Source of the DNA: a virus
Lineage: Duplodnaviria; Caudoviricetes
Virus record (IMG/VR): IMGVR_UViG_3300037067_011569
Coordinates: 1 to 64,000 of that record
Strand: one strand, 5' to 3'
Length of the DNA stretch: 64,000 bases
Within the stretch, counting starts at the first letter, position 1; every line of letters starts with the position of its first letter. The notes beneath the pieces are model-generated. The model was not told the origin of the DNA. It saw only the letters and a list, made by a program, of their open reading frames with translations, and did no database searches. Positions 25,754 through 61,216 of this stretch are shown one piece after another. Position numbers and translations under genes: made by a program.

Positions 25754-26177
25754 TATCCACCTTTTTAGGTTTCTTGGAAGCATTAAAGTTCGCCGCAAGG
25801 GGCGAAAATTTCTGCATCATATCCTTAGTCAATCTTTCTTTTTCTTCTTGACTAAGGTGCTCGTATTCTTTTGGATCCTTAAAAAGTAAATCGTTGCCAC
25901 TTTGTTTTTTTGTTGTCTTTTGGTCTCTACTACCTTTGAACTCTATTCCATTTGCTAACGCTTGGTACTTTAGTGTCTCTATTTCTTTTTTCTTTACATG
26001 CTCAAATAGATACATCAACTGACTTAAAGTTATTCCTCCGTCTCTATATCCTTTTCCGAAGAAGTCGATAGGTCTATACCCGTAACTGAGGCAGACTTCA
26101 GCGACGGCAAATTCGTAGGTGACAAGTTCAATATCTTCTCCTTCAACTTCTCTAGCTGACTCGTCACCTTCTCCAAT
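25746..26177 (-). CDS. tail assembly chaperone, -1 frameshift extension (gpT-like)
   Basis: -1 frame open from the slippery site through ORF 25746-26018. Confidence 0.75.
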   Translation of the reverse strand: MGEGDESAREVEGEDIELVTYEFAVAEVCLSYGYRPIDFFGKGYRDGGITLSQLMYLFEHVKKKEIETLKYQALANGIEFKGSRDQKTTKKQSGNDLLFKDPKEYEHLSQEEKERLTKDMMQKFSPLAANFNASKKPKKVDNG

Positions 26178-37995: not shown

Positions 37996-40062
37996 TTATT
38001 CTCCTAAGAGATTTTGAATTGCTTTTTTTACTTTCACTGGATGAATAGTATTAATACAAGGTGTCATACAGGGATTTTTATCTTGCTGTCCCCAACACCC
38101 TGAAGTAATAGGACAAACATCAAGTCTATCAGGTTCAAGTATTATTGATCTTGCTCCATGTTGCATTCTTGGTTGTGTAACTCTAGCAGGAGCAGGTCCA
38201 AATATTGCTACAGTGTTTATACCTAATGCACCTGCTAAGTGCATTGGAAATGAATCAACACATACTGCAATATCTGCCATTGACATCACCCATGCAGTTT
38301 CACGCCACGTAAGTTTCCCTCTCAAGTCCAACTCAGCAGAACGAACAGGCCAATCATTTTCACTGCCGATCTGAATCACAAACAATGCCAATCCTTTTAA
38401 AGCGATATCCAAGTGCTTGTACATTCTATACTGTGGTTGCCCACCTGTAGTATGCACAATACACATAGGTCTTGCTGTTGCTAATGTATCATCATCAAAA
38501 AATTCAGGTTTGGAAATAGTTATTGATATTTCATCAGGATCTACTTTGCAGAAGTATGGATACATACTGTACAAAGTAAAATCAAGGTTGTTCCAACCAC
38601 CGGGTAGAATCTTTTCTCCATGAGGATTATAGACAATATCATATTGACCAAATTTATTTTTATCCCATGATACAATCTTGTCTATATATTTATTCCCTTC
38701 AACAATATCCATGAATACTGGTTGTGTCATATAGTGAAGTGGAATATTAGGATGTCTTTCTTTTATACCCTTAAGGCATTGTGTTGTCATAAGAACATCA
38801 CCAGCAGAACTATGCTGTGCAAAAAGAATTGCATTTTCTTTACTTGCTACAGTTTCAATTGTGTTAGGAGCTAATTCAGATAATAAATTATTTATATCTG
38901 AAACACCACACAACCAGTTTTGAGCAGTCTTTATGTTGCTTCTACCAATCTCTTCTCTTATTTCTTTTGATTCGTATGACATATTCAACATAGCATCAGC
39001 TAAAGAATTAATATTACATGCTTTTGTCTCTATATGAGATTGGCCAAAAGCAGTCATGGAATGTAAATATGTTAATTCATCACATTCCACTAAGTACTTA
39101 TCATTCTCAAACAATTCTATATGGGCAGTGTTTTTTGATGCAATAACAGGCGTACCACAAAGCATTGCATTAAGAATTGTCCAACTCAAACCTTCTTGAA
39201 GTGAACAATTAACAAGACAATCAATACCATTATATATCTCAGCCATTTCAGACTCGGGTAATGTAAAATCTTGCTTATTAACAGATATTGACCCCGTTCT
39301 GATATCATAATCTTGTACTAAAGAATGTATGTTAAACACACCATTAAAATTGGTGTGTAAATAGATGTATGTATTATTATTATTTGGATTTACTATCTCA
39401 CCAAATACCTTAAGAAACCTAGGCAAATCTTTTCTTACTTGGTTCTTGCCTATAAACCCAAATATAAAAATATCATCATTTTCTTCACCACCTAAAATCT
39501 TTTTTCTTGCGGCGTTCCTTACTTCAGGTGAGTACTTTTTATATAGATCAGAATCGGCAAGTGGAGGTCTAAAGTAATGAAGATTTTTTACGACATCTTT
39601 CAGAGTATTATACCCATATTCACTGTACACACAAGGAACATCAAAGAAATTGAACCACTCACACCAATCAGTTCTTAACTTGAGTAAATCGTAAGGAAAT
39701 ATTCCAGACAATTTTATCTTAAACGCCGATCTTAAATCATCCAGTTGTCTAAAAATATAACCGTATCTCCAAATATCTAAACCCACAATTACCATCGCAT
39801 CATACTTAAACTTCTTTATCAATTCCACTATTTGAGAACCACCATAAACTTCATCATTATGTGGTGTAAAAGGAATTAATAAATAAGGAAGATTTATTGG
39901 AGTAGAAGCAATAACAAATTGAGATTTAGTAGGTACAGTAACACCGAAGCAGGTTATTTCGAATTTAGTATAATCAATGGTACTTAATAGGGAACGCATC
40001 ATATTCCCATTTCCTGTGAATGCGTAAGGATGATCTCCAACCAGTAAGATACGCTTCTTCAC
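37996..40062 (-). CDS. fused GT4 + GT9 (heptosyltransferase-like) glycosyltransferase
   Basis: N-half SLQEGLSWTILNAMLCGTPVI; C-half SAGDVLMT, VDSFPMHLAGALG..TVAIFGP; GTG start after GGAGG. Confidence 0.88.
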   Translation of the reverse strand: MKKRILLVGDHPYAFTGNGNMMRSLLSTIDYTKFEITCFGVTVPTKSQFVIASTPINLPYLLIPFTPHNDEVYGGSQIVELIKKFKYDAMVIVGLDIWRYGYIFRQLDDLRSAFKIKLSGIFPYDLLKLRTDWCEWFNFFDVPCVYSEYGYNTLKDVVKNLHYFRPPLADSDLYKKYSPEVRNAARKKILGGEENDDIFIFGFIGKNQVRKDLPRFLKVFGEIVNPNNNNTYIYLHTNFNGVFNIHSLVQDYDIRTGSISVNKQDFTLPESEMAEIYNGIDCLVNCSLQEGLSWTILNAMLCGTPVIASKNTAHIELFENDKYLVECDELTYLHSMTAFGQSHIETKACNINSLADAMLNMSYESKEIREEIGRSNIKTAQNWLCGVSDINNLLSELAPNTIETVASKENAILFAQHSSAGDVLMTTQCLKGIKERHPNIPLHYMTQPVFMDIVEGNKYIDKIVSWDKNKFGQYDIVYNPHGEKILPGGWNNLDFTLYSMYPYFCKVDPDEISITISKPEFFDDDTLATARPMCIVHTTGGQPQYRMYKHLDIALKGLALFVIQIGSENDWPVRSAELDLRGKLTWRETAWVMSMADIAVCVDSFPMHLAGALGINTVAIFGPAPARVTQPRMQHGARSIILEPDRLDVCPITSGCWGQQDKNPCMTPCINTIHPVKVKKAIQNLLGE

Positions 40063-40103
40063 CGGACATAACCTCCAAATTTTCTTCACCAAAAGGGGTG
40101 ATT

Positions 40104-42029: not shown

Positions 42030-43265
42030 TTATTTTACAGTAAGAACGTAAACACCCTTAGGTCTGTAAAGAACAGGCAAACCCTTATTCTCTACCATCA
42101 CATAACGACCTTCAGGATCTTCAACGTCCCAAGACTTTACCTTCATTCCGTACGACCGAGCAAGACCAAAAGGTGCATTGTAATAACCAGCAATTTGATC
42201 CCCTTCAACAGTATTGCAATACATTGCAAACTTGCTTTCGGAGATAAACTTTTTGGTCATTGAAACGTAATCTTCACCCTTTACATAGCTTGCTACAGGT
42301 GCAGTATCAACAGTAACAGTGCCATTTTCAGCAGAAACAGCGGAGATTGTTGAATCTTCAGAAGTTCCTGCACTTACATCATGGAAAGTAAGCTCTGCAC
42401 CCACTTCAAAATCAGTTGCATCCTCAACATAAATAGTAACAGTTGAGTTGAGAGTAACAGCAGCAGTCAGGTAAGTCCTAATTTCGTACATTTCATCATA
42501 GACCAGCATATTCGGAATCTGAAAAAGATTCTGAAGTGCAGGAATAGGATTGGTGAGATACGCATTAAGACCAGGTTGACCAGCAAAACCAGAGTTGGCC
42601 ATGATCTGAAGAATCCCCTTGTCCTGCTGGAGAAGCTTCAAAACCTCAGAAGTAAAAATAGCGTGAGTAACCTGTGCAGCGGCTTTATTCTGAAGATACA
42701 ATCTTGCATCTGCAATGTCATCCACGATATCTCTATTGGTACCAGAATCCCACTTTCTGTCAGCGGCAAGGGTTACGAGGTGAGCAGAAGGAACACTGTA
42801 ATCAACAGATACCTTTACTTCACCACGACCCAGATACTCAAAAGAACCTTCAGTCATCATCTTGCAGAACATCCATTCTTTTCTGCGGTCACAACGATTC
42901 CTGAGGTTTTTGGTTTCCTGTGCAACCTTACGAGCAGCAGGCATATAAGTCTGACGACTACCTACCTGACGGAGATTGTTAAGAAAAACTTCATCAAAGA
43001 AGAGTTTTTCCTTCCAATAAGCGGCCATCGCTCTACCGGCCCCGTGACCAGTAAGACTTGTTTCTTTCGCAGGTGAACCGGGAGCAGCAAACGGAGTAAG
43101 TCCCCTGGTGCCCACAATGCTTTCCCATTCAATGCTATCAGATTCATTATTCTCTGAAGGAAAAGCAGTCATAAAATGAAGATTCGGTGGTGTCATATAA
43201 CTTTCAATAGTCTTCTTCAACACCACTAGCCTGAGATCAGCAATATCAGAAGCGCCTTTAGGCAT
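42030..43265 (-). CDS. major capsid protein (lambda gpE-like) with ~80-aa insertion
   Basis: GLTPFAAPGSP, RRKEWM, VDYSVP, DRKWD...DIVDDI, PVLYRP. Confidence 0.88.
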   Translation of the reverse strand: MPKGASDIADLRLVVLKKTIESYMTPPNLHFMTAFPSENNESDSIEWESIVGTRGLTPFAAPGSPAKETSLTGHGAGRAMAAYWKEKLFFDEVFLNNLRQVGSRQTYMPAARKVAQETKNLRNRCDRRKEWMFCKMMTEGSFEYLGRGEVKVSVDYSVPSAHLVTLAADRKWDSGTNRDIVDDIADARLYLQNKAAAQVTHAIFTSEVLKLLQQDKGILQIMANSGFAGQPGLNAYLTNPIPALQNLFQIPNMLVYDEMYEIRTYLTAAVTLNSTVTIYVEDATDFEVGAELTFHDVSAGTSEDSTISAVSAENGTVTVDTAPVASYVKGEDYVSMTKKFISESKFAMYCNTVEGDQIAGYYNAPFGLARSYGMKVKSWDVEDPEGRYVMVENKGLPVLYRPKGVYVLTVK

Positions 43266-44021: not shown

Positions 44022-45644
44022 TTATTTCGCCAGTTTCAAGTTTCTTTTGACAATAACATCTTCCTCAGCGGTAAGATCACGATCTTGATCATTAAGATCA
44101 ATATCTTCACCATCTACTTCTTTGGAAGCAGTACCGAACCCAAGAACCGAAGACTGAGTAGTTGTAAAACTACCTTCCCAATCCTTGATCTTTTCGTCAA
44201 TTGCTGCTGAGAAGCCTGCTACATCAAGAACACATTCCTTAATATAATCATCTGCCTTTACAATGGCTTTCAGATCATCATGTCGCCTTGAAGGAATGTT
44301 GCTCTTTGTGAGTTTCTTAGTCCAGATAGAGTCAACAGTAGCAGTAAGCTCTCTTTCAGAACGAAGGATATCTTTCTCCTTCAGCTTGGAATTTTCTGCT
44401 TTGAGCATCTTATTATCATCCTCAATAGCATCCAAGCGGTCCTTCAGAGAGTTGAACTGTTGATCGGAAGAAGATTTAGCTTCTTCCAGTATCTGCTGGA
44501 CAAGTTCAGGATGATTTGCTTTCAACTCTTTCAAATCCATAGTTTTATTACCTCCTTCTTTTTCGGTATGTGTTTCTGAAACACTTAGCTGAGAACTTGT
44601 GAGATTAATTACTTCCACAGTGAAGCTTGCACTTGCAGAATTATTATCTGCCTTCCTTGTTGAATCAATTCTACTCCTCAACCTTTCCATTGCTACTTCT
44701 CTTGTACCTATATGATCAATTAGCCCTATATCCCTAGCCTGAGCACCAATGAATATTTTTCCTTCTGCCATCTTCATTGTATCCTCAGACGATGCCCCTC
44801 TATTACTAGCCACATCATCAACAAATATCTTGTAGTAAGTATCCAACATGTCTTGAATATACGACTTTCCTTCTTCACTAAGTGGTTCATCGGAATTGGC
44901 GAGTCTTTTGTACTTACCTGAATAAATGTGAGTCTTTTTAACTCCCATTTCTTCATTTCGTCTACTATAATCATTGTGTACAGCAGCAACACCAATTGAA
45001 CCTGCTTGTGACAGATCGGTTCCTACTATCTCAGATGCAGCAGAACTAACCCAATAAGCAGCAGAGGCGATAAGTCCATCTGTAAAAGCAACAATAGGTT
45101 TAATATCTCTTGCTTCTTTTACATAATCTGCAAGCTCTTTTGTTCCCTCTACAGCACCACCGGGTGAATCAACATCAAGGAATATGCCTTTAACATCAGG
45201 ATCTTCTATTGCCGCTTGAATATGTGTTCTAAGTAGTTGTGTGGAAGTGCCCCCACTAAACTCTGAAAACATATTCATTCTTTTGCTCATTACACCATAA
45301 ATAGGAATAGTAGCAATTCCATTATCAAGTGTGTAATGGTCATTTGCTCTATACCCACTTCTACCTTCCCTATATGCTTCTATATCAGCTAGTTTGGTAG
45401 TAGTGTATCTTTCCACCAATAGTGCATTTATTTCTTCAAGTTTCTCAGGTACAATAGCACAAGGGGTATTTTGAAAGGTGTCGAGAATAATACTCCCTGT
45501 ACTTTTCTCTTTCTTGTTCTGTTCCCACTTAGATTCACAGATAGCTCTAGCTTGATCAGGTTTGTATCCCTCTTTGTTGATCAAATCAGAGGTACATCTG
45601 TTGATATAATCCTGTTTCTTTTCGCCCTTATTCGGTGTAGGCAT
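44022..45644 (-). CDS. S49 (SppA-like) prohead protease fused to scaffold
   Basis: DVDSPGG, ASAAYW, GSIGV, SGKYK; C-terminal coiled coil. Confidence 0.92.
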   Translation of the reverse strand: MPTPNKGEKKQDYINRCTSDLINKEGYKPDQARAICESKWEQNKKEKSTGSIILDTFQNTPCAIVPEKLEEINALLVERYTTTKLADIEAYREGRSGYRANDHYTLDNGIATIPIYGVMSKRMNMFSEFSGGTSTQLLRTHIQAAIEDPDVKGIFLDVDSPGGAVEGTKELADYVKEARDIKPIVAFTDGLIASAAYWVSSAASEIVGTDLSQAGSIGVAAVHNDYSRRNEEMGVKKTHIYSGKYKRLANSDEPLSEEGKSYIQDMLDTYYKIFVDDVASNRGASSEDTMKMAEGKIFIGAQARDIGLIDHIGTREVAMERLRSRIDSTRKADNNSASASFTVEVINLTSSQLSVSETHTEKEGGNKTMDLKELKANHPELVQQILEEAKSSSDQQFNSLKDRLDAIEDDNKMLKAENSKLKEKDILRSERELTATVDSIWTKKLTKSNIPSRRHDDLKAIVKADDYIKECVLDVAGFSAAIDEKIKDWEGSFTTTQSSVLGFGTASKEVDGEDIDLNDQDRDLTAEEDVIVKRNLKLAK

Positions 45645-47369: not shown

Positions 47370-49241
47370 TCAATAATTACCATAAACCTGCTTTTCTTGT
47401 ACGTATATACCAAATATAAAAGAAGTAGTACCTCTTTCTCTGAAATTCTCTATTCCTAAATTCCTACCTGAAAACATCGCCCAACCCGTAGCAAACATTG
47501 AATCATCTTGTATTCCGCCTTTCTCTTCTTTTTCAGGGGAACCAAACCATCTTTTTTCTATATCGTGATCAAATATTTCCATTTCTTCTATCTGTATATC
47601 ACCACTCTTTGACCCCAATACACCTGTAGGTGCTGATTTAAACAAACCTTTTGATACAGAGGAATAAAATTCACCGAATGCTGATCTCTGTCTATCATAA
47701 GTAGGGAATATAAGATCAAACGATATTTCTCTTTCTGTTGCCCAAGGTTCTAAGTCCCATAATCCCCAACGCTCTCCACCTATTGCATCAATCCCATCAT
47801 ATTCAAGATGATATTGATTCAATAGTTCCTTTATGCCTTCCAAAGAGTGGTTTGTTACATCTTCTAAATGTAAACGTATATACATATAGTTAGGAACTAC
47901 ACCTTCTCCGTAAAACATGAAGGGATTTGATCTGCTCCCAGGTAATCCTTTTGCCAAACAAGTAACAATAGTTCTAGCAGAGGATCTGGTTTTCATTGGA
48001 TCTGCACGATCAACCCCTACCAAAATAACCCAATTTGTATCAAACAAATCACCTAACTTTTTCAAGTCTTCTATGGTTGCTGCTTGATTTTCATACCCAT
48101 TATTTAGTTGATAGTACTTAGAAATCCTGCCAAATCTCTTCTCTATGTCATGTAACAATGCCTCATTGCTTGCTCTTGCATCAATATCTTTAACTTCAAG
48201 GTCACTTATCTGCTGCAACATCCTATTTTTTTCTTCAAGCAACTCAATTACCTTATCTTGACTGCCAAGATGTCCATCAACAGAGTAAATAGACATTGCC
48301 TCTATCATTTCGTCCGAAAAAACACGAACTTTTCCTGCTGACCACAAGTTCTTAAAGAACTTTTCAAACTCACCAAAAGGAAACTTGACTTTGTAGCCGT
48401 CAAGTTCCTCTTGCGTCATGTTTGGATGCCACCAATCGTTTTGATTCCCTTCTTCTGAGTACCTATACGAATAAAATATGTTCTCTGTACCAGGTTTTTT
48501 CTCTACTTTGTCTCTCCACATAGCATAAAGAGGATGTTGCTTTGGTGAAACGGTAGAATCTATTACACCAAGAGCATTTGCAATAGTACGAATAGAACCG
48601 TCAAGCTCCACAAAAAACTTTGGATTCTTCATGGAGAACATTTCAGAGAATGTGTAACCCGTAATATTTGAAACAATCCCTGAAAAACTAGACAATGCTC
48701 TTATTGTACTAACTATTCCCCCTCTTTTATCTCTCAAAGTTATGGATTTTTGTTGCACATTCTTCCAACCAACAATGCCCAATAGTCTTGGTGAGTTCTT
48801 CACTATATCAGACATAACATCAAAGTGGACAAACTTAATCTGATCTTTGCTATTTGCACCAAGAACTATATCTTGTTTAGGCCAACAAAAGAACTTCCAT
48901 AACTGTATAAGACAAGCAAGGAACGATTTACCTTCACCTCGCATCCAACAAAAAATGAGAAGTCTGTAAACAAACCTCCCATTCTCCATCTTCAAAGCTT
49001 CTCGGACAAGCTTCTTTTGTTCATCCCACATTTGCTTATAACTTCTACCTGTCTTAGGATTTGGTGTATCAGGCAGGGAATGAACTGGTACCCATCTCGC
49101 AATATCAGAGCCTTCAGGGTATATTTTGATACAAACATTTTCTTCACACCAATATATAAAACCTTCTGCTCCATCTCTATACTTCTGAAGTTTTGTAAGT
49201 TCTGGTTTCTTGATATTTCTTCTTCTCACGATGGGTATCAT
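47370..49241 (-). CDS. terL: terminase large subunit
   Basis: Walker A MRGEGKS, C-terminal nuclease GVDRAD ... QDDSMFA. Confidence 0.88.
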   Translation of the reverse strand: MIPIVRRRNIKKPELTKLQKYRDGAEGFIYWCEENVCIKIYPEGSDIARWVPVHSLPDTPNPKTGRSYKQMWDEQKKLVREALKMENGRFVYRLLIFCWMRGEGKSFLACLIQLWKFFCWPKQDIVLGANSKDQIKFVHFDVMSDIVKNSPRLLGIVGWKNVQQKSITLRDKRGGIVSTIRALSSFSGIVSNITGYTFSEMFSMKNPKFFVELDGSIRTIANALGVIDSTVSPKQHPLYAMWRDKVEKKPGTENIFYSYRYSEEGNQNDWWHPNMTQEELDGYKVKFPFGEFEKFFKNLWSAGKVRVFSDEMIEAMSIYSVDGHLGSQDKVIELLEEKNRMLQQISDLEVKDIDARASNEALLHDIEKRFGRISKYYQLNNGYENQAATIEDLKKLGDLFDTNWVILVGVDRADPMKTRSSARTIVTCLAKGLPGSRSNPFMFYGEGVVPNYMYIRLHLEDVTNHSLEGIKELLNQYHLEYDGIDAIGGERWGLWDLEPWATEREISFDLIFPTYDRQRSAFGEFYSSVSKGLFKSAPTGVLGSKSGDIQIEEMEIFDHDIEKRWFGSPEKEEKGGIQDDSMFATGWAMFSGRNLGIENFRERGTTSFIFGIYVQEKQVYGNY

Positions 49242-49243
49242 AA

Positions 49244-49894
49244 TTACTTCCCGTTATTCAAAGAAGTTTTGAAGTTCATACTAAAAGGATCTCCTACAGG
49301 CTCAGTTTCTTTCATTAATTCTGATACATAATCATTATCATCATTGCTTCCACTGCTTCCTAGATCAAGCAATTCCTTCTCTTTTTTCTTCATCAAATCT
49401 GTCAATCCTGCTACTGATTTTGGATCTATGGCTAGTTTCTCAGCAGTGTAGTAAATTGCTTTCATTGTTTCTCTGATCTCTTTAAATATTGGATGAACGT
49501 ACTTGCTTTTTCCTACACATATAATATCTTCTAATCCAAGACCTGCTTCAACAAGTTTGAACTTACACAATTGAACAAACAAAGGTGTAAGATGCATACC
49601 AAAACCATATAGTTGAAATTGATCCCATTCTTCCGCATATGCTTTCAACAATGTATTGGATGCAGTCTTAACATATTGCATCTGGACAGTACATTTATGT
49701 TCATTGGTTTTGTTTTCTGCTGGACATCTTTCGTAGACAGGACATTCTTCTACAGCACAAACTCCCACAATATCCCATGATACTAAAGTTTTTCCTGCAA
49801 AGATTCCCCCATGAAATCCAAGTTCCCCAAATTTTCTTTCAAAGCGATCTGGTAATTTACTTCTTCTGTTTTTGCTAATCATTTCTTTCTCCAT
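49244..49894 (-). CDS. putative terminase small subunit
   Basis: Immediately upstream of terL; Cys cluster, acidic tail. Confidence 0.55.
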   Translation of the reverse strand: MEKEMISKNRRSKLPDRFERKFGELGFHGGIFAGKTLVSWDIVGVCAVEECPVYERCPAENKTNEHKCTVQMQYVKTASNTLLKAYAEEWDQFQLYGFGMHLTPLFVQLCKFKLVEAGLGLEDIICVGKSKYVHPIFKEIRETMKAIYYTAEKLAIDPKSVAGLTDLMKKKEKELLDLGSSGSNDDNDYVSELMKETEPVGDPFSMNFKTSLNNGK

Positions 49895-50011: not shown

Positions 50012-50449
50012 ATGCAATTAACTTATTACATGGGGGATACATTGAAAAAGGAAAGTAAGTTAATAAAGCATGGGCACACAAGAGGTGGCATAGAATCAAT
50101 CGAGTACAGAACATATTCAGGGATGAAGAACAAGTGTTGTAATCCAAATTATGTCAGATACGATCTTTATGGAGGAAGAGGAATCACTATTTGCGAAGAA
50201 TGGATGAATTCATTTGAACAATTCCTTATTGATCTAGGACCAATGCCTGATGGTGCAGTACTTGGCAGAATTGATGAAAACAAAAACTTTGATCCTGAAA
50301 ATGCTAGATGGATGAGTAAGGGAGATTATATAAGATCACTTCCTTCTTCTTTTGGTTATAGAAAACATCCCAGAATGTCTGCAAAGAAAAGAAAGCTCCA
50401 AGAGATGCTTGCACTTATTCCAATTAAAAGGAGAAACAATGGTAACTGA
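50012..50449 (+). CDS. HNH-related endonuclease-like protein
   Basis: KHGHT..EY.TY..MK..C.NPN...Y.LYGGRGITICEEW...LGRID. Confidence 0.75.
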   Translation: MQLTYYMGDTLKKESKLIKHGHTRGGIESIEYRTYSGMKNKCCNPNYVRYDLYGGRGITICEEWMNSFEQFLIDLGPMPDGAVLGRIDENKNFDPENARWMSKGDYIRSLPSSFGYRKHPRMSAKKRKLQEMLALIPIKRRNNGN

Positions 50450-51220: not shown

Positions 51221-51489
51221 CTTTCACCACCTTCATTATTTGTCCCAGCAATGATATTTATAACCTGTACCTAAAGTCATTAAACATTAAAACCAAAGAA
51301 GAGAAACAAAGTTACCAAAGACTTACAGAGAAAGATCAATTAAATGGTTATGGTAATTTCAATGTAATTGTCATAGAATCAAATCACCAATACTTTACTT
51401 TTGAGAAAACAGTTAGGATATTAAAATACGTAAACTACCTTCAATCTTTAAAAGCTATCTCACCAATAAAAAGAATCACCAAGTTTTAG
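51217..51489 (+). CDS. hypothetical protein
   Basis: AGGAG RBS. Confidence 0.6.
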   Translation: MTFTTFIICPSNDIYNLYLKSLNIKTKEEKQSYQRLTEKDQLNGYGNFNVIVIESNHQYFTFEKTVRILKYVNYLQSLKAISPIKRITKF

Positions 51490-51493
51490 TATC

Positions 51494-51557
51494 TGTTTTA
51501 TCTGGAGCTTGTAGGGATTTAATAAAAGATTAGTTCCTTACAGTTCCAGATAAAACA
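51494..51557 (+). terminator. long hairpin directly after the last gene of the 50-51.5 kb cluster
   Basis: TGTTTTATCTGGA/TCCAGATAAAACA arms plus inner TGTAGGGA/TCCTTACA. Confidence 0.55.
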
Positions 51558-52250
51558 ATAACAAGGTTTCTATTCAGCAATGATAACAATTAATTCCCTT
51601 CCTCTTTTAACAATCATTATCTTGGTTCTTATTCAATATATATACCTTATAATTCCCTTCTAAATAAATCAATCCCAAAACACAAAATGATGTTTTAGAC
51701 TACTCTAACTAAGACTTTTACACACTAAAATCATCACTGGAACTAACAGGAATTAATTGCAATAAAGCTTTAATAAGAACCAAATAAGTTTGGTTCTTAT
51801 CTTTTCTATTCAAATACTTATTCAGTAAAGTTCCTTAGTTTTTATATAATTATTGGCACTAAAAAATAAAAACAGTAAAAAATCAGGACATAATAAACAT
51901 CACTGTAGAGTCTACTTTTAGACTACTCTGATTAAACAAAGATAAGATAAATAAATCATAGCATCCCTGTATCAGGGATTAAGTTTAAATCAAATGGAAG
52001 TTCTAACTGTAGTAAAAATACTATTTTCAAAAATAAAAAGTCCCAAAATAAAAAGAAGGAAAACATAGTAAATAGAAAAGGGAGGGGGTAGGTTGGTAGT
52101 AGATAAAATAAAAGATTCAGTAAGAAAAAGAGTAGTAAGAATATAAAGCAGAGTTGTTCCCCTTGTTGGTAAGTAAAGTTTATTATTGTTCATTTTATTG
52201 GGAGTAGTTAGAAGAAAGTATATGCATAAATGGGAGGAGTTAGTTTGATT

Positions 52251-52344
52251 GTTATTTTGCCGGGAATAATTATGTAATTAAAATTGGTTTTATATGTAGT
52301 AAGGAAAAGTATTTTATGTAGTTATTTTATTGGGAATAATTATG
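52251..52344 (+). repeat. 24-mer direct repeat GTTATTTTnnnGGGAATAATTATG x2, 70-bp period
   Basis: 52251-52274 vs 52321-52344, 21/24 identical. Confidence 0.8.
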
Positions 52345-54343
52345 ATCGGTACCCCCGTGCTGCTGTCTGTCCATTTCTTTTGAGATAGAACGAGGGGGTA
52401 TCTCTTTATCTAATCATTTCAATAGTTTAGCTGATATAGCGTCTGATATTGTATGTTATGTAAACTTGTAATGATATCGCATAGTTAGCTATGCTTATGT
52501 TTTCTGATTACAATAAGTGCATATACACTAACTATATAAGCGCAAAGCATGATATCGCTCGCTTTGCTCGCTTACAGTGCAACGCTTCGCTCGCTTTGCT
52601 CGCTGTAGTCGCTTGTCTTACTTCGCTTGTTGTAGTCGATTACAGCAACTTGTCTTTGTCTTCACTACTCGCTTTATTCACTCTTACAATTCGCTTTGTT
52701 TTCAATATTATTTACTCTATCATTATCACAATTGTTAACAATGTTGTTAAAAGTGACAAAAATTGTCACTCGGTTACAGTCTACATCACATGATATAGTG
52801 TTTCTATCTTGATACAACACTTGACAAAATGTGATAAGTTCTTTTCTGTTTTTAACTAAATAACATCACTTTCCTGATATAGTTTAACGATATATAGTAA
52901 TAATTATGACAATAATCATTCTTCAATCAACGATCGGCTATGCAAACGAAGTAGAGTACACTCTCAATTTTGCTCTGCTCAAAATGCTTAAAAACGATGT
53001 TAGAATCAATATTCAACTTTTTGCATATAAGCTTTTGAGTGAAGAGATTGTTAACAATGTTGTTTATGAAAGTAGTCTACTTTTTACTGTTTTCAATATT
53101 GTTAAAGATATTGTTAACAATTTGCTACTTACTGTATAAAACTACTTTTTCTTACTATTCTGATTAGACTGATTTAGTTCTCTTTTCAGTACAGTACAAA
53201 AAGTAAGTAGAATAAGAATTTTGCAAAGTACTTTGATTTATCTGTTTTTTCTTACTTTATTGATTTTACTTGTTTTGCTTTAATCTATACTGAATCTATA
53301 GAGTAAGTGCTACAAGACGTTTTAACGCACGCTAGAACACGAATTATGAACTATGCAGTACAATGCTTTTCATTATGCTGCATCGTTTCTGCATAAGCTT
53401 TTGAGTGCTTTCTTAAGAATGATTCTCTTTTGCACAGTTTTATGTGCAATGCACTGTTTTATGTGCAATTTCTTGATTCTTTAGTTATCTCAATAAGTTA
53501 AGTATGTTTTCGAGTAAAAAATTGCACATGTTTATGTGCAATGACGAATAATTCTTCTATTCTGAACTAGTAAAAATGAACTTATTTTTACGAGTAAAAA
53601 TAATGCTTTATCTTCTTTTTTGTTTCTAAAAGCGGGTATAGCATAAAATTTGCATTCTCTTTTGTTCGTGCTGACATATAGTCAGAGACTCTGAAAGTAA
53701 AAGCTCATGAGAAATAGAGTGAAGAGACTTTGAACGAAGTCTCAACTTTCAGAGAAAGCGAATAACTGCTAAATTCTTTCTCGTTTGACTGTAGAGTGAC
53801 TACAGACAAGTTGAGTAGCAGTGAAGAGCAACAGTGAACGCATTGCGTTTTTCGTGTGCTGACTAGTGAAGAGAAAGCACAAGCGCAACTATGTAAAACG
53901 TGTGAGTAGACTAAACACGTTGCGTAAATCAGATTCAAAGACTGTTGTAGTTATGCGAAAGACAAGAGAATTTAGCTTATCACTTTCGAAGTAGCATGCT
54001 GAATCTAAGCATTGCGAAATTGACAATTTAATCTGATTAACAAAAAGCAAATAGCTTGTTCTTGTGCTATTGCTATGCGAGTTAAAGCATAGATTGCACA
54101 AAGCGAATAGAAAGCTAGTGCTTAGTCTTTTATTGCTGCTATGCAGATATGTCATTATTACAGACTATAGGGTAAGAACTATAGATAATGATTAAACGTC
54201 TTTACTCTGCTATTCGCATAGATAAGATAATAAATCGAATCTAAAGCATAAAAGACTGATTAAAATACATAACAAGAGCATTTATACTTTATGCTTTTTG
54301 CTAATCAGATTTTCTCTTTTCTCTTTTCTCTTGACTCGTAACA

Positions 54344-54377
54344 AAAAGAGATAGTAGCAATTGCTACTATCTCTTTT
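54344..54377. repeat. 34-bp perfect palindrome AAAAGAGATAGTAGCAATTGCTACTATCTCTTTT
   Basis: Checked base by base. Confidence 0.95.
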
Positions 54378-54410
54378 CAATATGCAGAGTAAGAAAGTAG
54401 AGCAAATATC

Positions 54411-54593
54411 ATGTTAAAAGACAGAATATTAAATGCTACAAGAGATTTTCTTAATGCAAAGAATTCTAGTAGACTACTTATCAGCAATTTTGAAAATGAA
54501 ATTGCTGTATGTAAGAATTTTAATGAATACAAAGAAAACAAAGAACTAAAAGAACTTGAATCACTTATTAATAAGTTCAAGTCAATTCTTTAA
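54411..54593 (+). CDS. hypothetical early protein (no Gly/Pro/Trp)
   Basis: ORF with purine-rich, GG-free leader. Confidence 0.6.
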   Translation: MLKDRILNATRDFLNAKNSSRLLISNFENEIAVCKNFNEYKENKELKELESLINKFKSIL

Positions 54594-54666
54594 TCTTACA
54601 TACTCTGCATGTTGATAAGAGATAGATTGCAATGACTTCTATCAGTCTTTTAAGACTAGAAAGAGA

Positions 54667-54888
54667 GTGAAGAATTTGATTATTCGAGTATCTGATACTT
54701 TCAAGTCTAATCTTAGAAATAGCATAGATAGACTTGAAAATCGTAGCAAAGTAGAACTTGAGAAAGATTTTTTTGACAAGTTCACTTATGCACAAGATAG
54801 TTGTGTTGCATGTAATTCTGATTTAAAAGACTTTTCTAGCTTTTATTGTCATGAATGCGAGAAAGTGATTGCTAAACTGAAGAGATAA
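54667..54888 (+). CDS. hypothetical early protein with CxxC..CxxC (no Gly/Pro/Trp)
   Basis: CVAC...CHEC; GTG start after AGAAAGAGA. Confidence 0.65.
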   Translation: MKNLIIRVSDTFKSNLRNSIDRLENRSKVELEKDFFDKFTYAQDSCVACNSDLKDFSSFYCHECEKVIAKLKR

Positions 54889-54929
54889 GTGCTTTTAACT
54901 TCTAACGTCAAAAGAAAGAGAGAAAAATC

Positions 54930-55391
54930 ATGAAAACGAGAACTGTAGTTCTGAGAAAGAAAAACAATGTCGTTTCTACTGTCAATGCAATTGACAGTGA
55001 TGCACTTGCAATATTTGAAGACAAAAAAGCCTTCATTGCAATGAAGGCTTTGAAAAGTGCAACTGATTTACTTGAAGAGAGGCGTGCAACACACTATGCG
55101 AACAAGTACGAGATTGCACGTGAAGTTGTGAAGAGTGTAGTGAAGAGCAACAAAAGAGCAAAGTCAGAAAAACATGCGTGCGTTAGTTATATTGAATCAC
55201 TGATCGAACAAGCACGCTATACACACAAAGAGATACTTGCTAGTGCATGCGTAATGTTTTCTGATTTAGCACGAATCACGATTGCAACGTATCTTTCAGA
55301 CTCGAAAAACCCATCTGAAAAATACGGATTCAGACGACATAAGTTCTCAAGACTTGCGAAAACTGACAGCAACAAAGTTATGCATTATTAG
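54930..55391 (+). CDS. putative DNA-binding protein; C-domain paralogous to 57560-58261
   Basis: YIESLI..T.KEI..RITI.TY.SDSKNPSEKYG shared. Confidence 0.8.
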   Translation: MKTRTVVLRKKNNVVSTVNAIDSDALAIFEDKKAFIAMKALKSATDLLEERRATHYANKYEIAREVVKSVVKSNKRAKSEKHACVSYIESLIEQARYTHKEILASACVMFSDLARITIATYLSDSKNPSEKYGFRRHKFSRLAKTDSNKVMHY

Positions 55392-55398
55392 CAGCTAG

Positions 55399-55438
55399 TG
55401 CAGTCAGCTAGAGCATTCGTGTTCTGACTGACTGCATT
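55399..55438 (+). terminator. hairpin with TTCG loop after 54930-55391
   Basis: GTGCAGTCAG..AGAGCA-TTCG-TGTTCT..CTGACTGCAT. Confidence 0.5.
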
Positions 55439-55734
55439 ATGATGCATGTAATGTATTTTGAGAAAAGAGAACAAAAGCTAATAATATCAGTGATTTAGCT
55501 TGTCATTGACATTGTAGAGCAATGGTAGACTCTTTTTGCACTTTTTGGGGAAGAATCTGCATTGCAGAACTATGGACAAATCACTGAAACGATTAGCTAT
55601 ATACAGAATTGTCAGCTATTTTGGAGATTAGTGCTGCATACAGAATTTCTGGGTGTTTCTGAGATAAATTGGAACATACAGCAAATTGGGGTATTTTTGG
55701 AGTTAATTTAATTTCAAGAGAGAAGGAGAAAAAC

Positions 55735-55881
55735 ATGGTACTTTATTTTAATGTGCAATGTGTAGAGTGTAATTTGTGGATGAAAGAAAGTAAAGAAAGT
55801 AATCTTTCGCAGGTGGCGAGGTACACCTGCACTAAATGTGGTAAAGTTGTAGAAGTATCTTTGGATATAGATGCAGATTAG
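55735..55881 (+). CDS. Zn-ribbon small protein
   Basis: CVEC..CTKC; leader motif. Confidence 0.7.
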   Translation: MVLYFNVQCVECNLWMKESKESNLSQVARYTCTKCGKVVEVSLDIDAD

Positions 55882-55975
55882 CAAAATGTGGAGTGTTGTG
55901 TTCTTTGGATACAACATTTCACTTGTGCTAGTGTGCTTTGGAGTTAATCTACTGACAAGAGAGAAGGAGAAAATT

Positions 55976-56092
55976 ATGAAATTTAAGGTAAAAGTGTTGT
56001 TCGAGAAAAAATGGATGTTTGTTTCTGGAACTAAAGAAGAATTGGAAATTTTCTTCGACATATTCCAGATTGAAAGGTTTGCTCTCTGCTAA
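55976..56092 (+). CDS. 38-aa peptide
   Basis: Leader motif + ATG. Confidence 0.6.
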   Translation: MKFKVKVLFEKKWMFVSGTKEELEIFFDIFQIERFALC

Positions 56093-56279
56093 TTGCGGAG
56101 GTGTATCATGAAAAGTTGGTGCCAACATCATGGAAACGAACTTCATGTATACTGCAAACTTAGCTATTTTCTGGGGAAAAAGCTTTCAAGGAAAATAGCT
56201 AAGTTTTGGGGGAAAACTTTTCTTTACAGGAATTTCATTTATTAGTCGGAGGATTAGAAGGACGTATGAAATATCAAAT

Positions 56280-57559: not shown

Positions 57560-58261
57560 ATGGAAAATGAAGAGAGAATTACTATGGCTGTGGATCTTCT
57601 GAATCAAGGTGTGGCAGAGGATGAAATTGTAAAAAGGCTTAGGTTTGCTCACAAAGTCAAAGTCAAAGAAGCTTCTGCAATTCTTCTCCAGGCGATGGAA
57701 AGAACTAGGACTGCAACTAAACAAGTGACAGGAGATCCTGAACCAACAAAAGAAGAAAGCACAGAAATTATTGCCCATACTGAAAACTCAAATACTTCTG
57801 AGGAGAAAGTGGAAGAGTTGAGTGAGGTAGAAAAAGCAAAACAATGGGCAGGTGAGGGAAATGACATGCCATGCTCAGTGTACGGTGAGCAAGACTTGTC
57901 AGACCCTGGATGTGATGCTTGCAAACGTGACTGTCCAGTAACCTTTGCTTTCTGTTCCGTGTTGTCTAACAAGCCGAAAACAGTGAAGAAAGTAGCTTCG
58001 ACAACAGGGGATAAAACGTCGAGAAAAAGAGTCAAAGGTGCTGGGTATGAGAAGGTCAAGTACATAGAAGGCTTGATCACTGAAGGGACACATACCCAGA
58101 AGGAGATTGTTGCTCTTGCGATGGAACAATATCCTGAAGTTAAGAGAATCACTATTACTACCTACATTAGTGATTCTAAGAACCCATCTGAGAAATATGG
58201 GTATGCAAGGCATGGATTCAGTTCACTTGCAAAGGTGACTGATGGGAAACTTCATTACTAG
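57560..58261 (+). CDS. multi-domain putative DNA-binding protein (HTH-like N-terminus, Cys cluster, conserved C-domain)
   Basis: Leader motif; C..CDAC..C..C; C-domain paralogous to 54930-55391. Confidence 0.8.
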   Translation: MENEERITMAVDLLNQGVAEDEIVKRLRFAHKVKVKEASAILLQAMERTRTATKQVTGDPEPTKEESTEIIAHTENSNTSEEKVEELSEVEKAKQWAGEGNDMPCSVYGEQDLSDPGCDACKRDCPVTFAFCSVLSNKPKTVKKVASTTGDKTSRKRVKGAGYEKVKYIEGLITEGTHTQKEIVALAMEQYPEVKRITITTYISDSKNPSEKYGYARHGFSSLAKVTDGKLHY

Positions 58262-58523: not shown

Positions 58524-59288
58524 ATGAACGAAAGATTAAATCCAGAAGAACACAATAAAATGGTAGACAAACTCCAAAAACTGCTTGCTCTTGCAACATC
58601 TCCGAATGAGAATGAGGCAAGATTGGCAATGGACAAAGCAGCGGAATTGATGGAGAAATATTCTCTGTCAATGGCTGATGTAAATGAGAACGGAAATTCA
58701 AAACCTGACCATATCAGGGAGCAAATGACAAGAGAAGATATTCCTGGACTTGGAAGTAGAAAAGTAAACTGGGAAAGTCTTCTTGCCAATTCGATTGCAA
58801 TGGCATTTGACGCAAAACTTGTAACAATGCCATATGCAACTTGGAAAGACGGAGAAAAAAGAGATTGGTCTTTGTCTTTCTTAGGATTTAAAGCTGATGT
58901 GGAGATGGCAATATGGTTGCATCTTTATATCAGAAGAAGCATTAGCAGGCTGAGTAGTAAAGGATACAAAGATATTAATGGCAGAAATAACTTTGCTCAT
59001 GGCATGGTTTCTTCTGTTCATGGCAGATTGCAAGAAATGTACAAGAGGAGAAATGAAATCTCCGATTGTAAGGCATTGGTTGTTGTAAAAACCGATGCGG
59101 TAAAGAAATTTACCACAGAGCATTTTCCTAGCCTGAAGAAAGGTACAAGAACTCAGATTACCGGTGATAGAAGTGCTTACTACAATGGGATAGAAGAAGG
59201 AAAGAAGTTGAATCTTTCTCGTCCGTTGAATGGAAGTGGTTCTTCTGGCAGAAGTGCTATTGACAGTGGACAGAAAAAACTGACATAA
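58524..59288 (+). CDS. DUF2786-domain protein
   Basis: DKLQKLLALATSPNENEARLAMDKAAELMEKY. Confidence 0.85.
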   Translation: MNERLNPEEHNKMVDKLQKLLALATSPNENEARLAMDKAAELMEKYSLSMADVNENGNSKPDHIREQMTREDIPGLGSRKVNWESLLANSIAMAFDAKLVTMPYATWKDGEKRDWSLSFLGFKADVEMAIWLHLYIRRSISRLSSKGYKDINGRNNFAHGMVSSVHGRLQEMYKRRNEISDCKALVVVKTDAVKKFTTEHFPSLKKGTRTQITGDRSAYYNGIEEGKKLNLSRPLNGSGSSGRSAIDSGQKKLT

Positions 59289-59378
59289 TTATTGGGTGTG
59301 GCACTATCCAAACAATAGTGTCATTCCTTGTAATTGTGTAACATAACCAAAACCAAACAAGAGAAAAGGAGAAAAAAA

Positions 59379-60248
59379 ATGGAAGAATCAAGATTAAAAG
59401 AAATCCTGAAGAAACATTTACTTTGGTTAAATGATGAAGAAGATGGGGAAAAAGCAGACTTGCATAGTGCAGACTTGTGTGATGCAAACTTGTATGGTGC
59501 AGACTTGCGTGGTGCAGACTTGTGTGGTGCAACCTTGCATGGTGCAGACTTGCGTGGTGCAAACTTGCATAGTGCAAACTTGTGTGATGCAGACTTGCAT
59601 GGTGAAGACTTGCGTGGTGCAGACTTGCGTGGTGCAGACTTGTGTGGTGCAGACTTGCGTGGTGCAAACTTGCATAGTGCAAACTTGTGTGATGCAAACT
59701 TGCATGGTGCAGACTTGCGTGGTGCAGACTTGTGTGGTGCAAACTTGCATAGTGCAAACTTGTGTGGTGCAGACTTGTGTGGTGCAGACTTGCGTGGTGC
59801 AGACTTGTGTGGTGCAAACTTGCATAGTGCAGACTTGCGTGGTGCAAACTTGCATAGTGCAAACTTGTGTGATGCAAACGGAATAAATAAATATCTAATA
59901 ACCCCTCTTCTATTGTTATTAGATCAGCCGGGAAAGATTATTGCCTACAAAATAGTCAATGCTAAGAACACAGGAATTTATTTCCCTGGCATTTACTACA
60001 AAATAGGAGAAACATTTGAAGAAAAAAATGCAAATTGTTACGAAAATGAACAATGTGGTTCAGGCATATCACTGGCTACTCTTGATTGGTGCATAAAAGA
60101 ATGGAAACCAGGAAGAAAAATACTCATGGCTGAGTTTGAAGCAAAAGACATTGCTGCAATACCAATTGGAACTGATGGAAAATTCAGGGTGTTCCGATGT
60201 AAAATTGTAGGAGAAAAAGACTTAAAATCAATCGGACTTATCGACTAA
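59379..60248 (+). CDS. pentapeptide-repeat protein with C-terminal phage domain
   Basis: ~28 A(D/N)LxG/S repeats; C-terminal IIAYK..YKIGE..CGSGI..KFRV. Confidence 0.92.
   Translation: MEESRLKEILKKHLLWLNDEEDGEKADLHSADLCDANLYGADLRGADLCGATLHGADLRGANLHSANLCDADLHGEDLRGADLRGADLCGADLRGANLHSANLCDANLHGADLRGADLCGANLHSANLCGADLCGADLRGADLCGANLHSADLRGANLHSANLCDANGINKYLITPLLLLLDQPGKIIAYKIVNAKNTGIYFPGIYYKIGETFEEKNANCYENEQCGSGISLATLDWCIKEWKPGRKILMAEFEAKDIAAIPIGTDGKFRVFRCKIVGEKDLKSIGLID
59454..59879 (+). repeat. 15-bp tandem repeat (GCA(G/A)ACTTG(C/T)(A/G)T(G/A)GT-like) encoding pentapeptides
   Basis: Visible periodicity. Confidence 0.95.
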
Positions 60249-60343
60249 CTTAGAAGGTTGGTGCTATGCTAAATGGTATAGCATCTTCCTTGTATGTTAG
60301 TAGGTAGAAATTAATCCAAACAAGAGAGAGGGGAGAAAAAAAA

Positions 60344-61216
60344 ATGGAAACAGGAACTGTGGCTTATCTGAATGAGGCAAAGGCGCTTTGTGGGGAACTT
60401 TTTCCTGATCGTGTGTTCCCTAATGTGGGTCGTTCACCTGTATGGTTTGGAAGAAGAGACAAGGTGTTGGCAGAAGGAAGAAAAGCTATTGTGGATTTCA
60501 ATAATGATAATCTCTTTGCAATCGCCAGTAATGAGTACAAACTGGTAAGGCATGAAGAGATTGTGAAGCAAGTCCACGATGCTTGTCTCGAAATTCCTGA
60601 GTATGGTATACCTGAAATGAAAATATCTTTACCGTATTCTGGAGCAAAGATGATTCTCGATGTGAAGTTTCCAGAAATGATGAAAGACATAAAGGTGGGT
60701 GACACAATCGTTCCAAAGATTAGTGTCCGTTCGTCTTATGATCTGCAATGGAAGCTTCGTAGTGACGGTGGATTGTACAGAGTGATATGTTCGAACGGAG
60801 CGATGGCTCCAGTGAAAGGAAAAGCATATTCCTACATAAACCGACATGTATCAAGTCTTGATCTGAACCTGATGATCGACACGATTAAAGAAGGTCTCAT
60901 TCTTTTCAGTGAACAAAGTGAGTTGTGGAAGAAATGGGCTGAGGCGAAAATTTCTAATGAGGTGTATTCTGAAATTTGGGAAGCACTTCCGTTCAGTCCG
61001 GCAGAAAAAGGGAAGATGGAAGAACTTCCCGAAACTGGCAGCAAGTTATTTCTTCCTGCTGCACTGCAAAGAGAGGAACTGACATTGTGGGATATGCATT
61101 CTGTGGTGACACAGTTTGTAACCCACAACATTGAAAGTGAAAACAGGAAGGCTGATCTTGAACCACAAGTGGCAAAAGTATTTGACAATGTATACTGGAA
61201 CAGGATGAACAACTAA
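60344..61216 (+). CDS. DUF932/DUF945-family protein
   Basis: IASNEYKLVRHEE, SYD...GGLYRVICSNG..H, TLWDMHS.VTQ. Confidence 0.85.
   Translation: METGTVAYLNEAKALCGELFPDRVFPNVGRSPVWFGRRDKVLAEGRKAIVDFNNDNLFAIASNEYKLVRHEEIVKQVHDACLEIPEYGIPEMKISLPYSGAKMILDVKFPEMMKDIKVGDTIVPKISVRSSYDLQWKLRSDGGLYRVICSNGAMAPVKGKAYSYINRHVSSLDLNLMIDTIKEGLILFSEQSELWKKWAEAKISNEVYSEIWEALPFSPAEKGKMEELPETGSKLFLPAALQREELTLWDMHSVVTQFVTHNIESENRKADLEPQVAKVFDNVYWNRMNN

Follow-up and report, generated by a model that had tools for sequence, protein, structure and literature searches.

The stretch of DNA described here consists of the first 64,000 bases (hereafter the window, bases 1-64000) of the virus record IMGVR_UViG_3300037067_011569 (Duplodnaviria; Caudoviricetes), a circular assembly of 90,361 bp with a 24-bp overlap, and it contains at 52398-55523 a zone from which the dinucleotides GG and CC have almost disappeared. 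Judged by its genes, the record is the genome of a ~90-kb siphovirus-like phage. On the minus strand to the left of the zone we identified the genes for the tape measure (20240-25798), the major head protein (42030-43265), the head protease (44022-45644) and TerL, the large subunit of the terminase (47370-49241; phrog_2 and phrog_9, E-value 3e-11). The open reading frame (ORF) directly upstream of TerL (49244-49894, minus strand) is a putative TerS from its position and found no family match in the profile search; 117 bp from it lies a plus-strand gene for an HNH endonuclease (50012-50449; phrog_3377, E-value 1e-27). On the right side small genes for DUF2786/DUF7168, pentapeptide-repeat and DUF932 proteins follow the zone as an array on the plus strand, and the replication genes come after them. 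An earlier note on this DNA had placed the zone between the packaging genes and an early-type gene array, and the gene map agrees.

The zone is free of strand preference and has sharp limits. The final GG on its left is at 52397, within GAGGGGGT, and GG resumes at 55524, the first one past the right edge; between them only 13 GG or CC remain in 3,126 bp, against ~167 expected. With local base composition as the reference, 52401-55520 holds 9 GG against 93 expected (observed/expected ratio, O/E, 0.10) and 4 CC against 74 expected (O/E 0.05). In the same interval CG and GC have O/E values of 0.88 and 1.74 (CG being at 0.49 across the whole window), and AG and CT are raised to 1.26 and 1.35. The stretches without any GG or CC reach 859, 698, 535, 375, 229 and 198 bp in the zone, versus a longest gap of 97 bp elsewhere in the whole 90,361-bp genome, and none of the other dinucleotide classes shows a gap comparable to the GG/CC gap. 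When segments are scored by a Poisson log-likelihood the zone obtains 178.6 and the runner-up 7.5, and the zone is unique in the genome. Chance falls far short of explaining this depletion of GG and CC, which is real. Recounting 52401-55520 gave exactly the 9 GG and 4 CC that the earlier note had counted by hand, and its statements that CG and GC stay frequent, that GG returns abruptly at about 55524-55550 and that the 286 residues of three zone ORFs include 1 Gly, 1 Pro and no Trp also hold. It had further considered that O/E might lie near 1 or that similar depletion might occur at random elsewhere; the ratios are 0.05-0.10 and the next segment scores the 7.5 given above.

The ban extends to the proteins and to the translation signals. 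An operon at 54411-55391 on the plus strand encodes proteins of 60, 73 and 153 residues, the three ORFs just mentioned, whose single Gly and single Pro compare with a share of Gly, Pro and Trp of 12% in 20 large ORFs outside the zone. GG and CC are missing from all three codon phases of these genes, the depletion is symmetric across the two strands and indifferent to the reading frame, and the ribosome-binding sites are AGAGAG-like instead of GGAGG.

The first ORF (54411-54593, plus strand, 60 aa) contains no Gly, Pro or Trp and is flanked by 31-nt inverted repeats (repeat I1). These repeats, at 54367-54397 and 54595-54625, are 87% complementary and flank the ORF exactly; they could delimit an invertible or excisable unit, or form a long-range RNA stem controlling the 60-aa gene. 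The second ORF (54667-54888, plus strand, 73 aa) is likewise devoid of Gly, Pro and Trp, has a zinc-ribbon-like C-terminus (CxxC...CxxC) and has an ortholog of 43% identity (E-value 2e-10) in the corresponding zone of a related phage, G001. The third ORF (54930-55391, plus strand, 153 aa), of a family that we call DSKNP, combines a long N-terminal helix with a predicted C-terminal winged-helix domain, and its one Gly and one Pro both lie inside a conserved NPSEKYG motif; the G001 ortholog, 43% identical, has lost both of them. In the AlphaFold2 model of the 153-aa protein the C-terminal domain (residues 80-153) has a predicted local distance difference test (pLDDT) score >90, and comparison of the model with known structures by VIA gave Z 6-8.1 to many winged-helix domains, with no hit of E <0.001 in a Foldseek search against the PDB. 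From its model the protein looks like a winged-helix regulator. Searches of PHROGs and Pfam with the zone ORFs of this phage and of 9 relatives returned nothing significant. The suggestion of the earlier note that these ORFs might be anti-CRISPR or anti-restriction-modification genes finds no support here, the main zone protein being winged-helix-like and the gene content varying among relatives. After the operon there is a terminator-like hairpin with 20-nt arms (55396-55439, plus strand; repeat I16), and the zone ends ~85 bp further.

A paralog of the 153-aa gene lies outside the zone, at 57560-58261 on the plus strand, and has a normal composition, with 14 Gly, 8 Pro, 1 Trp and 59 GG or CC. 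Over the 75-residue domain shared by the two proteins, 7 of the 9 Gly and Pro of the paralog are substituted in the zone copy, the Pro and Gly of NPSEKYG being those that remain. In total we observed three DSKNP paralogs with a predicted C-terminal winged helix, namely these two, in the zone and in the early array, and a third at genome 76382-77032.

The left part of the zone (52398-54400) contains no convincing gene and is dense in short repeats. On the plus strand we found an array of four copies of TCGCTCGCTTTGCTCGCT (52555-52613; repeat family D2), three partly palindromic copies of ATTGTTAACAATGTTGTT (52731-53123; families D6, D7, I5, I7 and I25) and three copies of TTGCACAGTTTTATGTGCAATG (53430-53543; families D5 and I3), the last two sets being candidate operators. 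Two non-coding patches at 53982-54334 (plus strand) are shared with G001 at 77-78% identity in blastn, the remaining zone being unalignable, and a 25-nt inverted repeat (54030-54054 and 54287-54311; repeat I4) links them; this region upstream of the zone operon is a candidate structured RNA or regulatory DNA. A perfect palindrome of 17+17 nt (34 bp, 54344-54377; repeat I12, also found as a self-match) stands just upstream of the first ORF. Terminator-like sites number 6 against 1.3 expected, a scan for sigma-70 promoters found no more sites than in shuffled sequence, and an Rfam scan of 51400-56200 gave just sub-threshold chance matches.

On the terminase side, the zone adjoins a non-coding bipartite element (52321-52400, plus strand) made of TTGGGAATAATTATGATCGGTACCCCC, ~30 nt and TTTGAGATAGAACGAGGGGGT, at the final G of which the zone begins. 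Alignment of 16 relatives gave for this element the consensus ggGAAAAAAtTTaTGGtgaGG.CC, a spacer of ~30 nt and aAGATA.A, often ending in GAGGGGG. Its first half frequently occurs in 2-3 direct copies, in >20 loci a distance of 23-115 bp separates the element from the zone edge, and a palindromic GGWCC or GGTACC core is found at the first base of the zone or tens of bases from it. Also on the terminase side of the boundary, three direct copies of a ATTTTATTGGGA(A/G)TA(A/G)TTA-type motif (52192-52344, plus strand; families D12 and D18) correspond in relatives to the consensus GGAAAAAATTTRTGG, often in 2-3 copies, and are candidate binding sites for the small terminase subunit.

Because the bipartite element is conserved and an HNH gene stands beside the terminase genes, we read it as a candidate cos site. 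As in HK97- and lambda-type phages with an HNH-assisted terminase, an HNH gene adjoins the terminase genes, and upstream of the putative terS stands the conserved non-coding element, in which A-tract motifs recur and the core, GGWCC or GGTACC, is palindromic. The present locus differs in that the HNH gene and the putative terS are transcribed divergently instead of in one direction, and in that its cos site is a candidate recognised from sequence. In lambda and HK97 the terminase-gene side of the DNA is packaged first. With the same polarity the zone would enter the capsid last and leave it first. The idea that a genome end, or the first-injected DNA, is found here had been put forward in the earlier note; the conserved element on the terminase side of the zone and the HNH gene near the terminase argue for it indirectly, and the position of the end and the order of entry would follow by analogy with those phages.

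To which lineage the phage belongs was examined with TerL and with the zone itself. Neither a tblastn search with TerL nor a nucleotide search with the zone found any relative or match among 50,697 phage records, and the DpdA protein described below is at most 40% identical to that of any cultured phage, which argues that the lineage is uncultured. From the strong Shine-Dalgarno sites and the depletion of CpG we suppose that the host is a Firmicute. In IMG/VR, 305 relatives were found by TerL, and we examined ~115 loci, designating the present phage G000 and calling zones by a Poisson log-likelihood ratio (LLR) with a threshold of >25. Of the 17 loci in a first set that extend 5 kb or more upstream of TerL, 14 have a GG/CC-free zone; these are 0.3-3.1 kb long and all lie 0.9-4.5 kb upstream of TerL. 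A second set adds further examples, and across relatives the length ranges from 0.3 to 3.4 kb, a tenfold difference. The G001 zone (3,359 bp) contains 10 GG or CC against 238 expected and includes a run of 2,630 bp with none, that of G023 and G025 (1,725 bp) 9 against 163, that of G004 (1,027 bp; genome 44% GC) 7 against 96, and that of G026 (2,520 bp; genome 46% GC) 0 against 266. Directly past the far edge of the G026 zone, over about 400 bp, the sequence is extremely rich in GG, with three copies of ACGGGGAGG(T/G)C, and the switch from 2,520 bp without GG or CC to this stretch is abrupt.

The position is conserved and the content is not. The zones of G000 and G001 align in three short patches only, between flanks that are 66-75% identical (blastn), and their zone proteins are 43% identical versus 78% for TerL. 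Across relatives the zone genes fall into no fewer than three protein families without a link in hhalign, and they occur in either orientation; in 14 zone proteins (1,993 aa) there are 5 Gly, Pro or Trp in total. A single conserved zone gene was considered and rejected, since among five families hhalign joins A to B (85%) and D to E (73%) and leaves C alone. The banned dinucleotide is the same in relatives from many different samples, with a GC content of 25-46% in the zones and of 33-49% in the loci. Since the zones are largely unalignable, their proteins diverged and their genes varied while the ban is kept, the comparison indicates that the ban belongs to the locus, where selection on DNA keeps it up, and is not inherited from one ancestral sequence. 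The left and right edges share no common motif, and the assemblies are circular with overlaps of 24-30 bp, which neither show nor exclude a collapsed repeat. In 22 pooled zones the most under-represented 4-mer is GATC (O/E 0.49, z -6.3), which fits the expectation for unprotected DNA guarding itself by its sequence. Outside the zones, palindromic 4-mers containing GG/CC could not be cleanly told apart, by how strongly they are avoided, from those lacking it.

That a single dinucleotide is banned across loci of 33-49% GC and many samples speaks for a phage-encoded reader over one belonging to a particular host, and DpdA is the obvious candidate. The genome encodes, to judge from its profile matches, a DpdA-type system, that is, a transglycosylase together with the preQ0 genes FolE, QueD, QueE and QueC. 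The cluster lies outside the window, at 75.2-80.6 kb of the genome, and comprises QueD, QueE, a paralog of the 153-aa zone gene, a Gat-QueC fusion, FolE, a QueF-like protein and a DpdA resembling tRNA-guanine transglycosylase (TGT). Pfam matches were obtained for PTPS (4e-33), Radical_SAM (1e-11), GTP_cyclohydroI (4e-43) and QueF (1e-16), and the Gat-QueC fusion matches QueC (Pfam, 4e-51) and phrog_10428 (3e-95). The DpdA gene (genome 79570-80556) matches phrog_887 (E-value 8e-45), and in tblastn its product matches 190 DpdA-bearing phage records. This paralog is the third DSKNP gene mentioned above; in the modification operon its neighbours are queE on one side and gat-queC on the other.

Among relatives that are near-complete and have a clear zone on the kb scale, all are DpdA-positive (G001, G004, G005, G006, G007 and G023-G026), and the DNA of such phages probably contains 7-deazaguanine, as their genes suggest. 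In the DpdA-negative relative G002 the order helicase-clamp-PolA is kept, with 1.7 kb in place of the 5.4-kb que/dpdA cluster of G000, and the syntenic position of the zone carries a 343-bp GAGTCAA repeat array and no gene free of Gly, Pro and Trp. As for this relative in general, the array counts ~15 copies of GAGTCAA/TTGACTC in its 343 bp, a DSKNP paralog is retained at the syntenic spot despite the loss of que/dpdA, and the genome-wide O/E of GG/CC is 0.80 versus 0.96-1.3 in DpdA-positive relatives. A helicase-based search for further DpdA-negative relatives returned 4 loci.

Among phages with characterised modification, phage 9g carries the base dG+. The DpdA motifs, 2-3 nt long, are GA and GGC for CAjan (PMC7544227) and GA for the Pseudomonas phage iggy (PMC10484667). 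At the end of the iggy record (MN029011, 59958-60585), in its strongest GA/TC-poor stretch, we observed 5 GA against 42 expected and 6 TC against 35 expected; in this core region the O/E of GA/TC is 0.12-0.17, and GG and CC are enriched (1.4-1.7). A weaker depletion of GA/TC runs over the record-end junction to ~870 (59,900-60,628 and 1-870). Iggy has a terminal repeat of 1,091 bp, whose coordinates are absent from the paper (PMC10484667), and the GA/TC-poor region appears to be unmentioned there. One experimentally characterised phage thus has a terminal region poor in the motif of its own DpdA, and the feature is not universal. In the DpdA-encoding Sulfitobacter phage M39 (PQ900653) a weak stretch of 490 bp (16359-16848) is poor in TC/CC on one strand only, with 14 against 66 expected (LLR 27.5). 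With CAjan, iggy and 9g the present phage shares que genes and a TGT-like DpdA, and with iggy a region poor in one motif; it differs from them in that none of the published DpdAs is known to target GG, the target presumed for this clade, and CAjan and 9g have no island of the kind seen here.

With a confidence falling a little short of even, we favour the reading that the zone is a regulatory module, probably the first DNA to enter, in which the GG target of the clade's DpdA is absent and which thereby escapes the phage's own DNA modification. The DpdA of this clade would most likely exchange G within GG steps, by analogy with the GA, or the GA and GGC, recognised by other DpdAs, so that the virion genome would be modified on both strands except in a module that offers nothing to modify. 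This module, made of operator-like repeat arrays and a small operon for winged-helix-like, zinc-ribbon-like and 60-aa proteins, would form the last-packaged, first-ejected end (lambda polarity) and would enter the cell as ordinary unmodified DNA. It would go unseen by defences that attack 7-deazaguanine DNA, such as the glycosylases Dag1 and Dag2 (bioRxiv 10.1101/2025.10.29.685425), and, having neither GG nor CC, also by restriction enzymes or protospacer-adjacent motifs (PAMs) that read GG/CC and are masked by modification elsewhere in the genome; dPreQ0 within the PAM cuts Cas9 cleavage by 75% (PMC10484667). The stronger proposal, that the zone is a modification-free beachhead of 0.6-3.4 kb in the clade, at the first-entering end, with GG erased as the DpdA target even from the proteins and both kinds of defence blind to it, is possible and rather doubtful. 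The second alternative of the earlier note, in which the rest of the genome would be modified at GG/CC and the zone would have to stay unmodified, is the better supported of its two, through the que/dpdA cluster, the presence of DpdA in clear-zone relatives and the GA/TC depletion of iggy; the reason that the note gives, host RNA polymerase, is a conjecture.

A comparable arrangement is known from T5 and T7. The first-step-transfer (pre-early) region of T5 and the leading end of T7 enter first and are poor in targets of host nucleases. The zone would likewise be a first-entering terminal segment with small early genes, many repeats and few nuclease targets. It differs in that a whole dinucleotide is depleted and not particular 6-bp sites, in that protein sequence is overridden, and in that its ORFs have no homology to T5 A1, A2 and dmp or to T7 Ocr. 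Neither PHROGs nor Pfam identified a homolog of the T5 pre-early proteins A1, A2 and dmp among the zone ORFs.

Several points weigh against the escape of the zone from DpdA modification. That GG is the DpdA motif is something we purely infer from the ban and by analogy with iggy. The DpdA-negative comparison concerns one relative, G002. Of the DpdA-positive relatives, G027, which is 98% complete, has no zone, G022 has a weak one and the distant G029 has none. A search of CAjan and 9g, whose DNA is proven to contain 7-deazaguanine, found no motif-free zone, so that DpdA alone does not require one. In G004 and G026, outside the zone too, GGCC and CCGG are avoided more than any other palindrome, which would be unexpected under full protection by modification. 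The boundary element could be a regulatory site instead of a cos site. Lastly, the zone genes of G004 and of families A and B are oriented toward the putative end, so transcription along the direction of entry is not general. Separately, the rule that every DpdA-positive relative has a zone was considered and is rejected by G027.

The first rival is avoidance of host defences alone, in which GG and CC would be removed as the NGG PAM of Cas9, as the CC PAM of type I-F or I-B systems or as parts of restriction sites, from DNA that enters first and must survive. We regard it as unlikely. It would account for a depletion that is symmetric on the strands and blind to the reading frame, for the depletion of GATC in the zones as well, and for the fact that in G004 and G026 no palindrome outside the zone is more under-represented than GGCC and CCGG, and the adjoining candidate cos site would fit a leading end. 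PAMs and restriction motifs, however, vary with the host taxon, whereas here one dinucleotide is banned in loci of 33-49% GC; removing GG/CC eliminates only ~22% of 6-bp palindromes, so that it is not a general avoidance of sites, and iggy depletes GA/TC, which is the motif of its own DpdA and not a PAM. Moreover, guarding 3 kb of 90 kb would be useful only if the remainder were protected otherwise, which leads back to modification. The first alternative of the earlier note, the evasion of a GG/CC-reading defence, therefore becomes less likely as the sole cause, the spread of GC implying different hosts, and stays compatible with the data if that defence is masked elsewhere by modification.

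In a second rival the zone would be out of reach of DpdA, as a long terminal repeat or an end segment synthesised anew, or covered, during packaging; any GG/CC sites in it would be unprotected in the next host and would for that reason have been purged. This is more doubtful again. The sharp edges on both sides and the adjoining candidate packaging site agree with it, as does the depletion of GATC, which fits unprotected DNA, and in iggy the GA/TC-poor region spans the record-end junction of a phage with a terminal repeat of 1,091 bp (PMC10484667). Set against this are the lack of a motif common to both edges and the tenfold variation in length, and the 24-30-bp overlaps of the circular assemblies leave the collapsed repeat that it would call for neither shown nor excluded.

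The comparative sequence data largely refute, and nearly exclude, a functionless by-product of local mutation (for example a CC-specific deaminase turning CC into CT and GG into AG), of an RNA or protein constraint or of AT-rich repeats, a very improbable origin to which the raised AG and CT, the many short repeats of the zones and the 343-bp 'zone' of G002, wholly explained by its GAGTCAA array, would be congenial, because conserved genes and non-coding DNA are both covered with the strands equal, the edges are sharp, the map position is the same in dozens of relatives with unrelated zone sequences, GC and CG are raised, which is not an outcome of deamination, and Gly, Pro and Trp are lost from proteins whose orthology can still be detected.

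A search of the literature found no paper that describes, for a hypermodified phage, an island lacking the modification motif, and no dinucleotide ban of such strength at the kb scale. What is new here is a kb-scale ban on a single dinucleotide, strong enough to deprive proteins of Gly, Pro and Trp and ribosome-binding sites of GGAGG, for which we found no published precedent. If the link to DpdA is true, the target motif of DNA-hypermodifying enzymes could be predicted from sequence, modification would carry a cost for hypermodified phages that is avoided at one critical locus, and this locus would be the place to look for immediate-early control and for the interplay with modification-dependent defences (glycosylases and type IV enzymes). 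If the beachhead proposal is true, the genome sequence itself would reveal what an uncharacterised DNA-modifying enzyme recognises, and staged genome entry would occur in a new siphophage lineage. The mechanism is unproven, and its predictions are sharp and testable.

Some neighbouring features deserve mention. Just past the zone, at 58524-61216 of the window, the genes for DUF2786/DUF7168, for a pentapeptide-repeat protein of 304 aa (a possible DNA mimic) and for DUF932 form a set that resembles the anti-defence genes in leading regions of plasmids. A tRNA scan of the window found none. The head-tail operon includes a glycosyltransferase of 698 aa (37996-40092 and neighbours). Finally, at genome 83216-87058 there is a family A DNA polymerase of 1,280 aa with an N-terminal domain of the uracil-DNA glycosylase (UDG) superfamily and a LAGLIDADG domain, pointing to an intein or to the insertion of a homing endonuclease.

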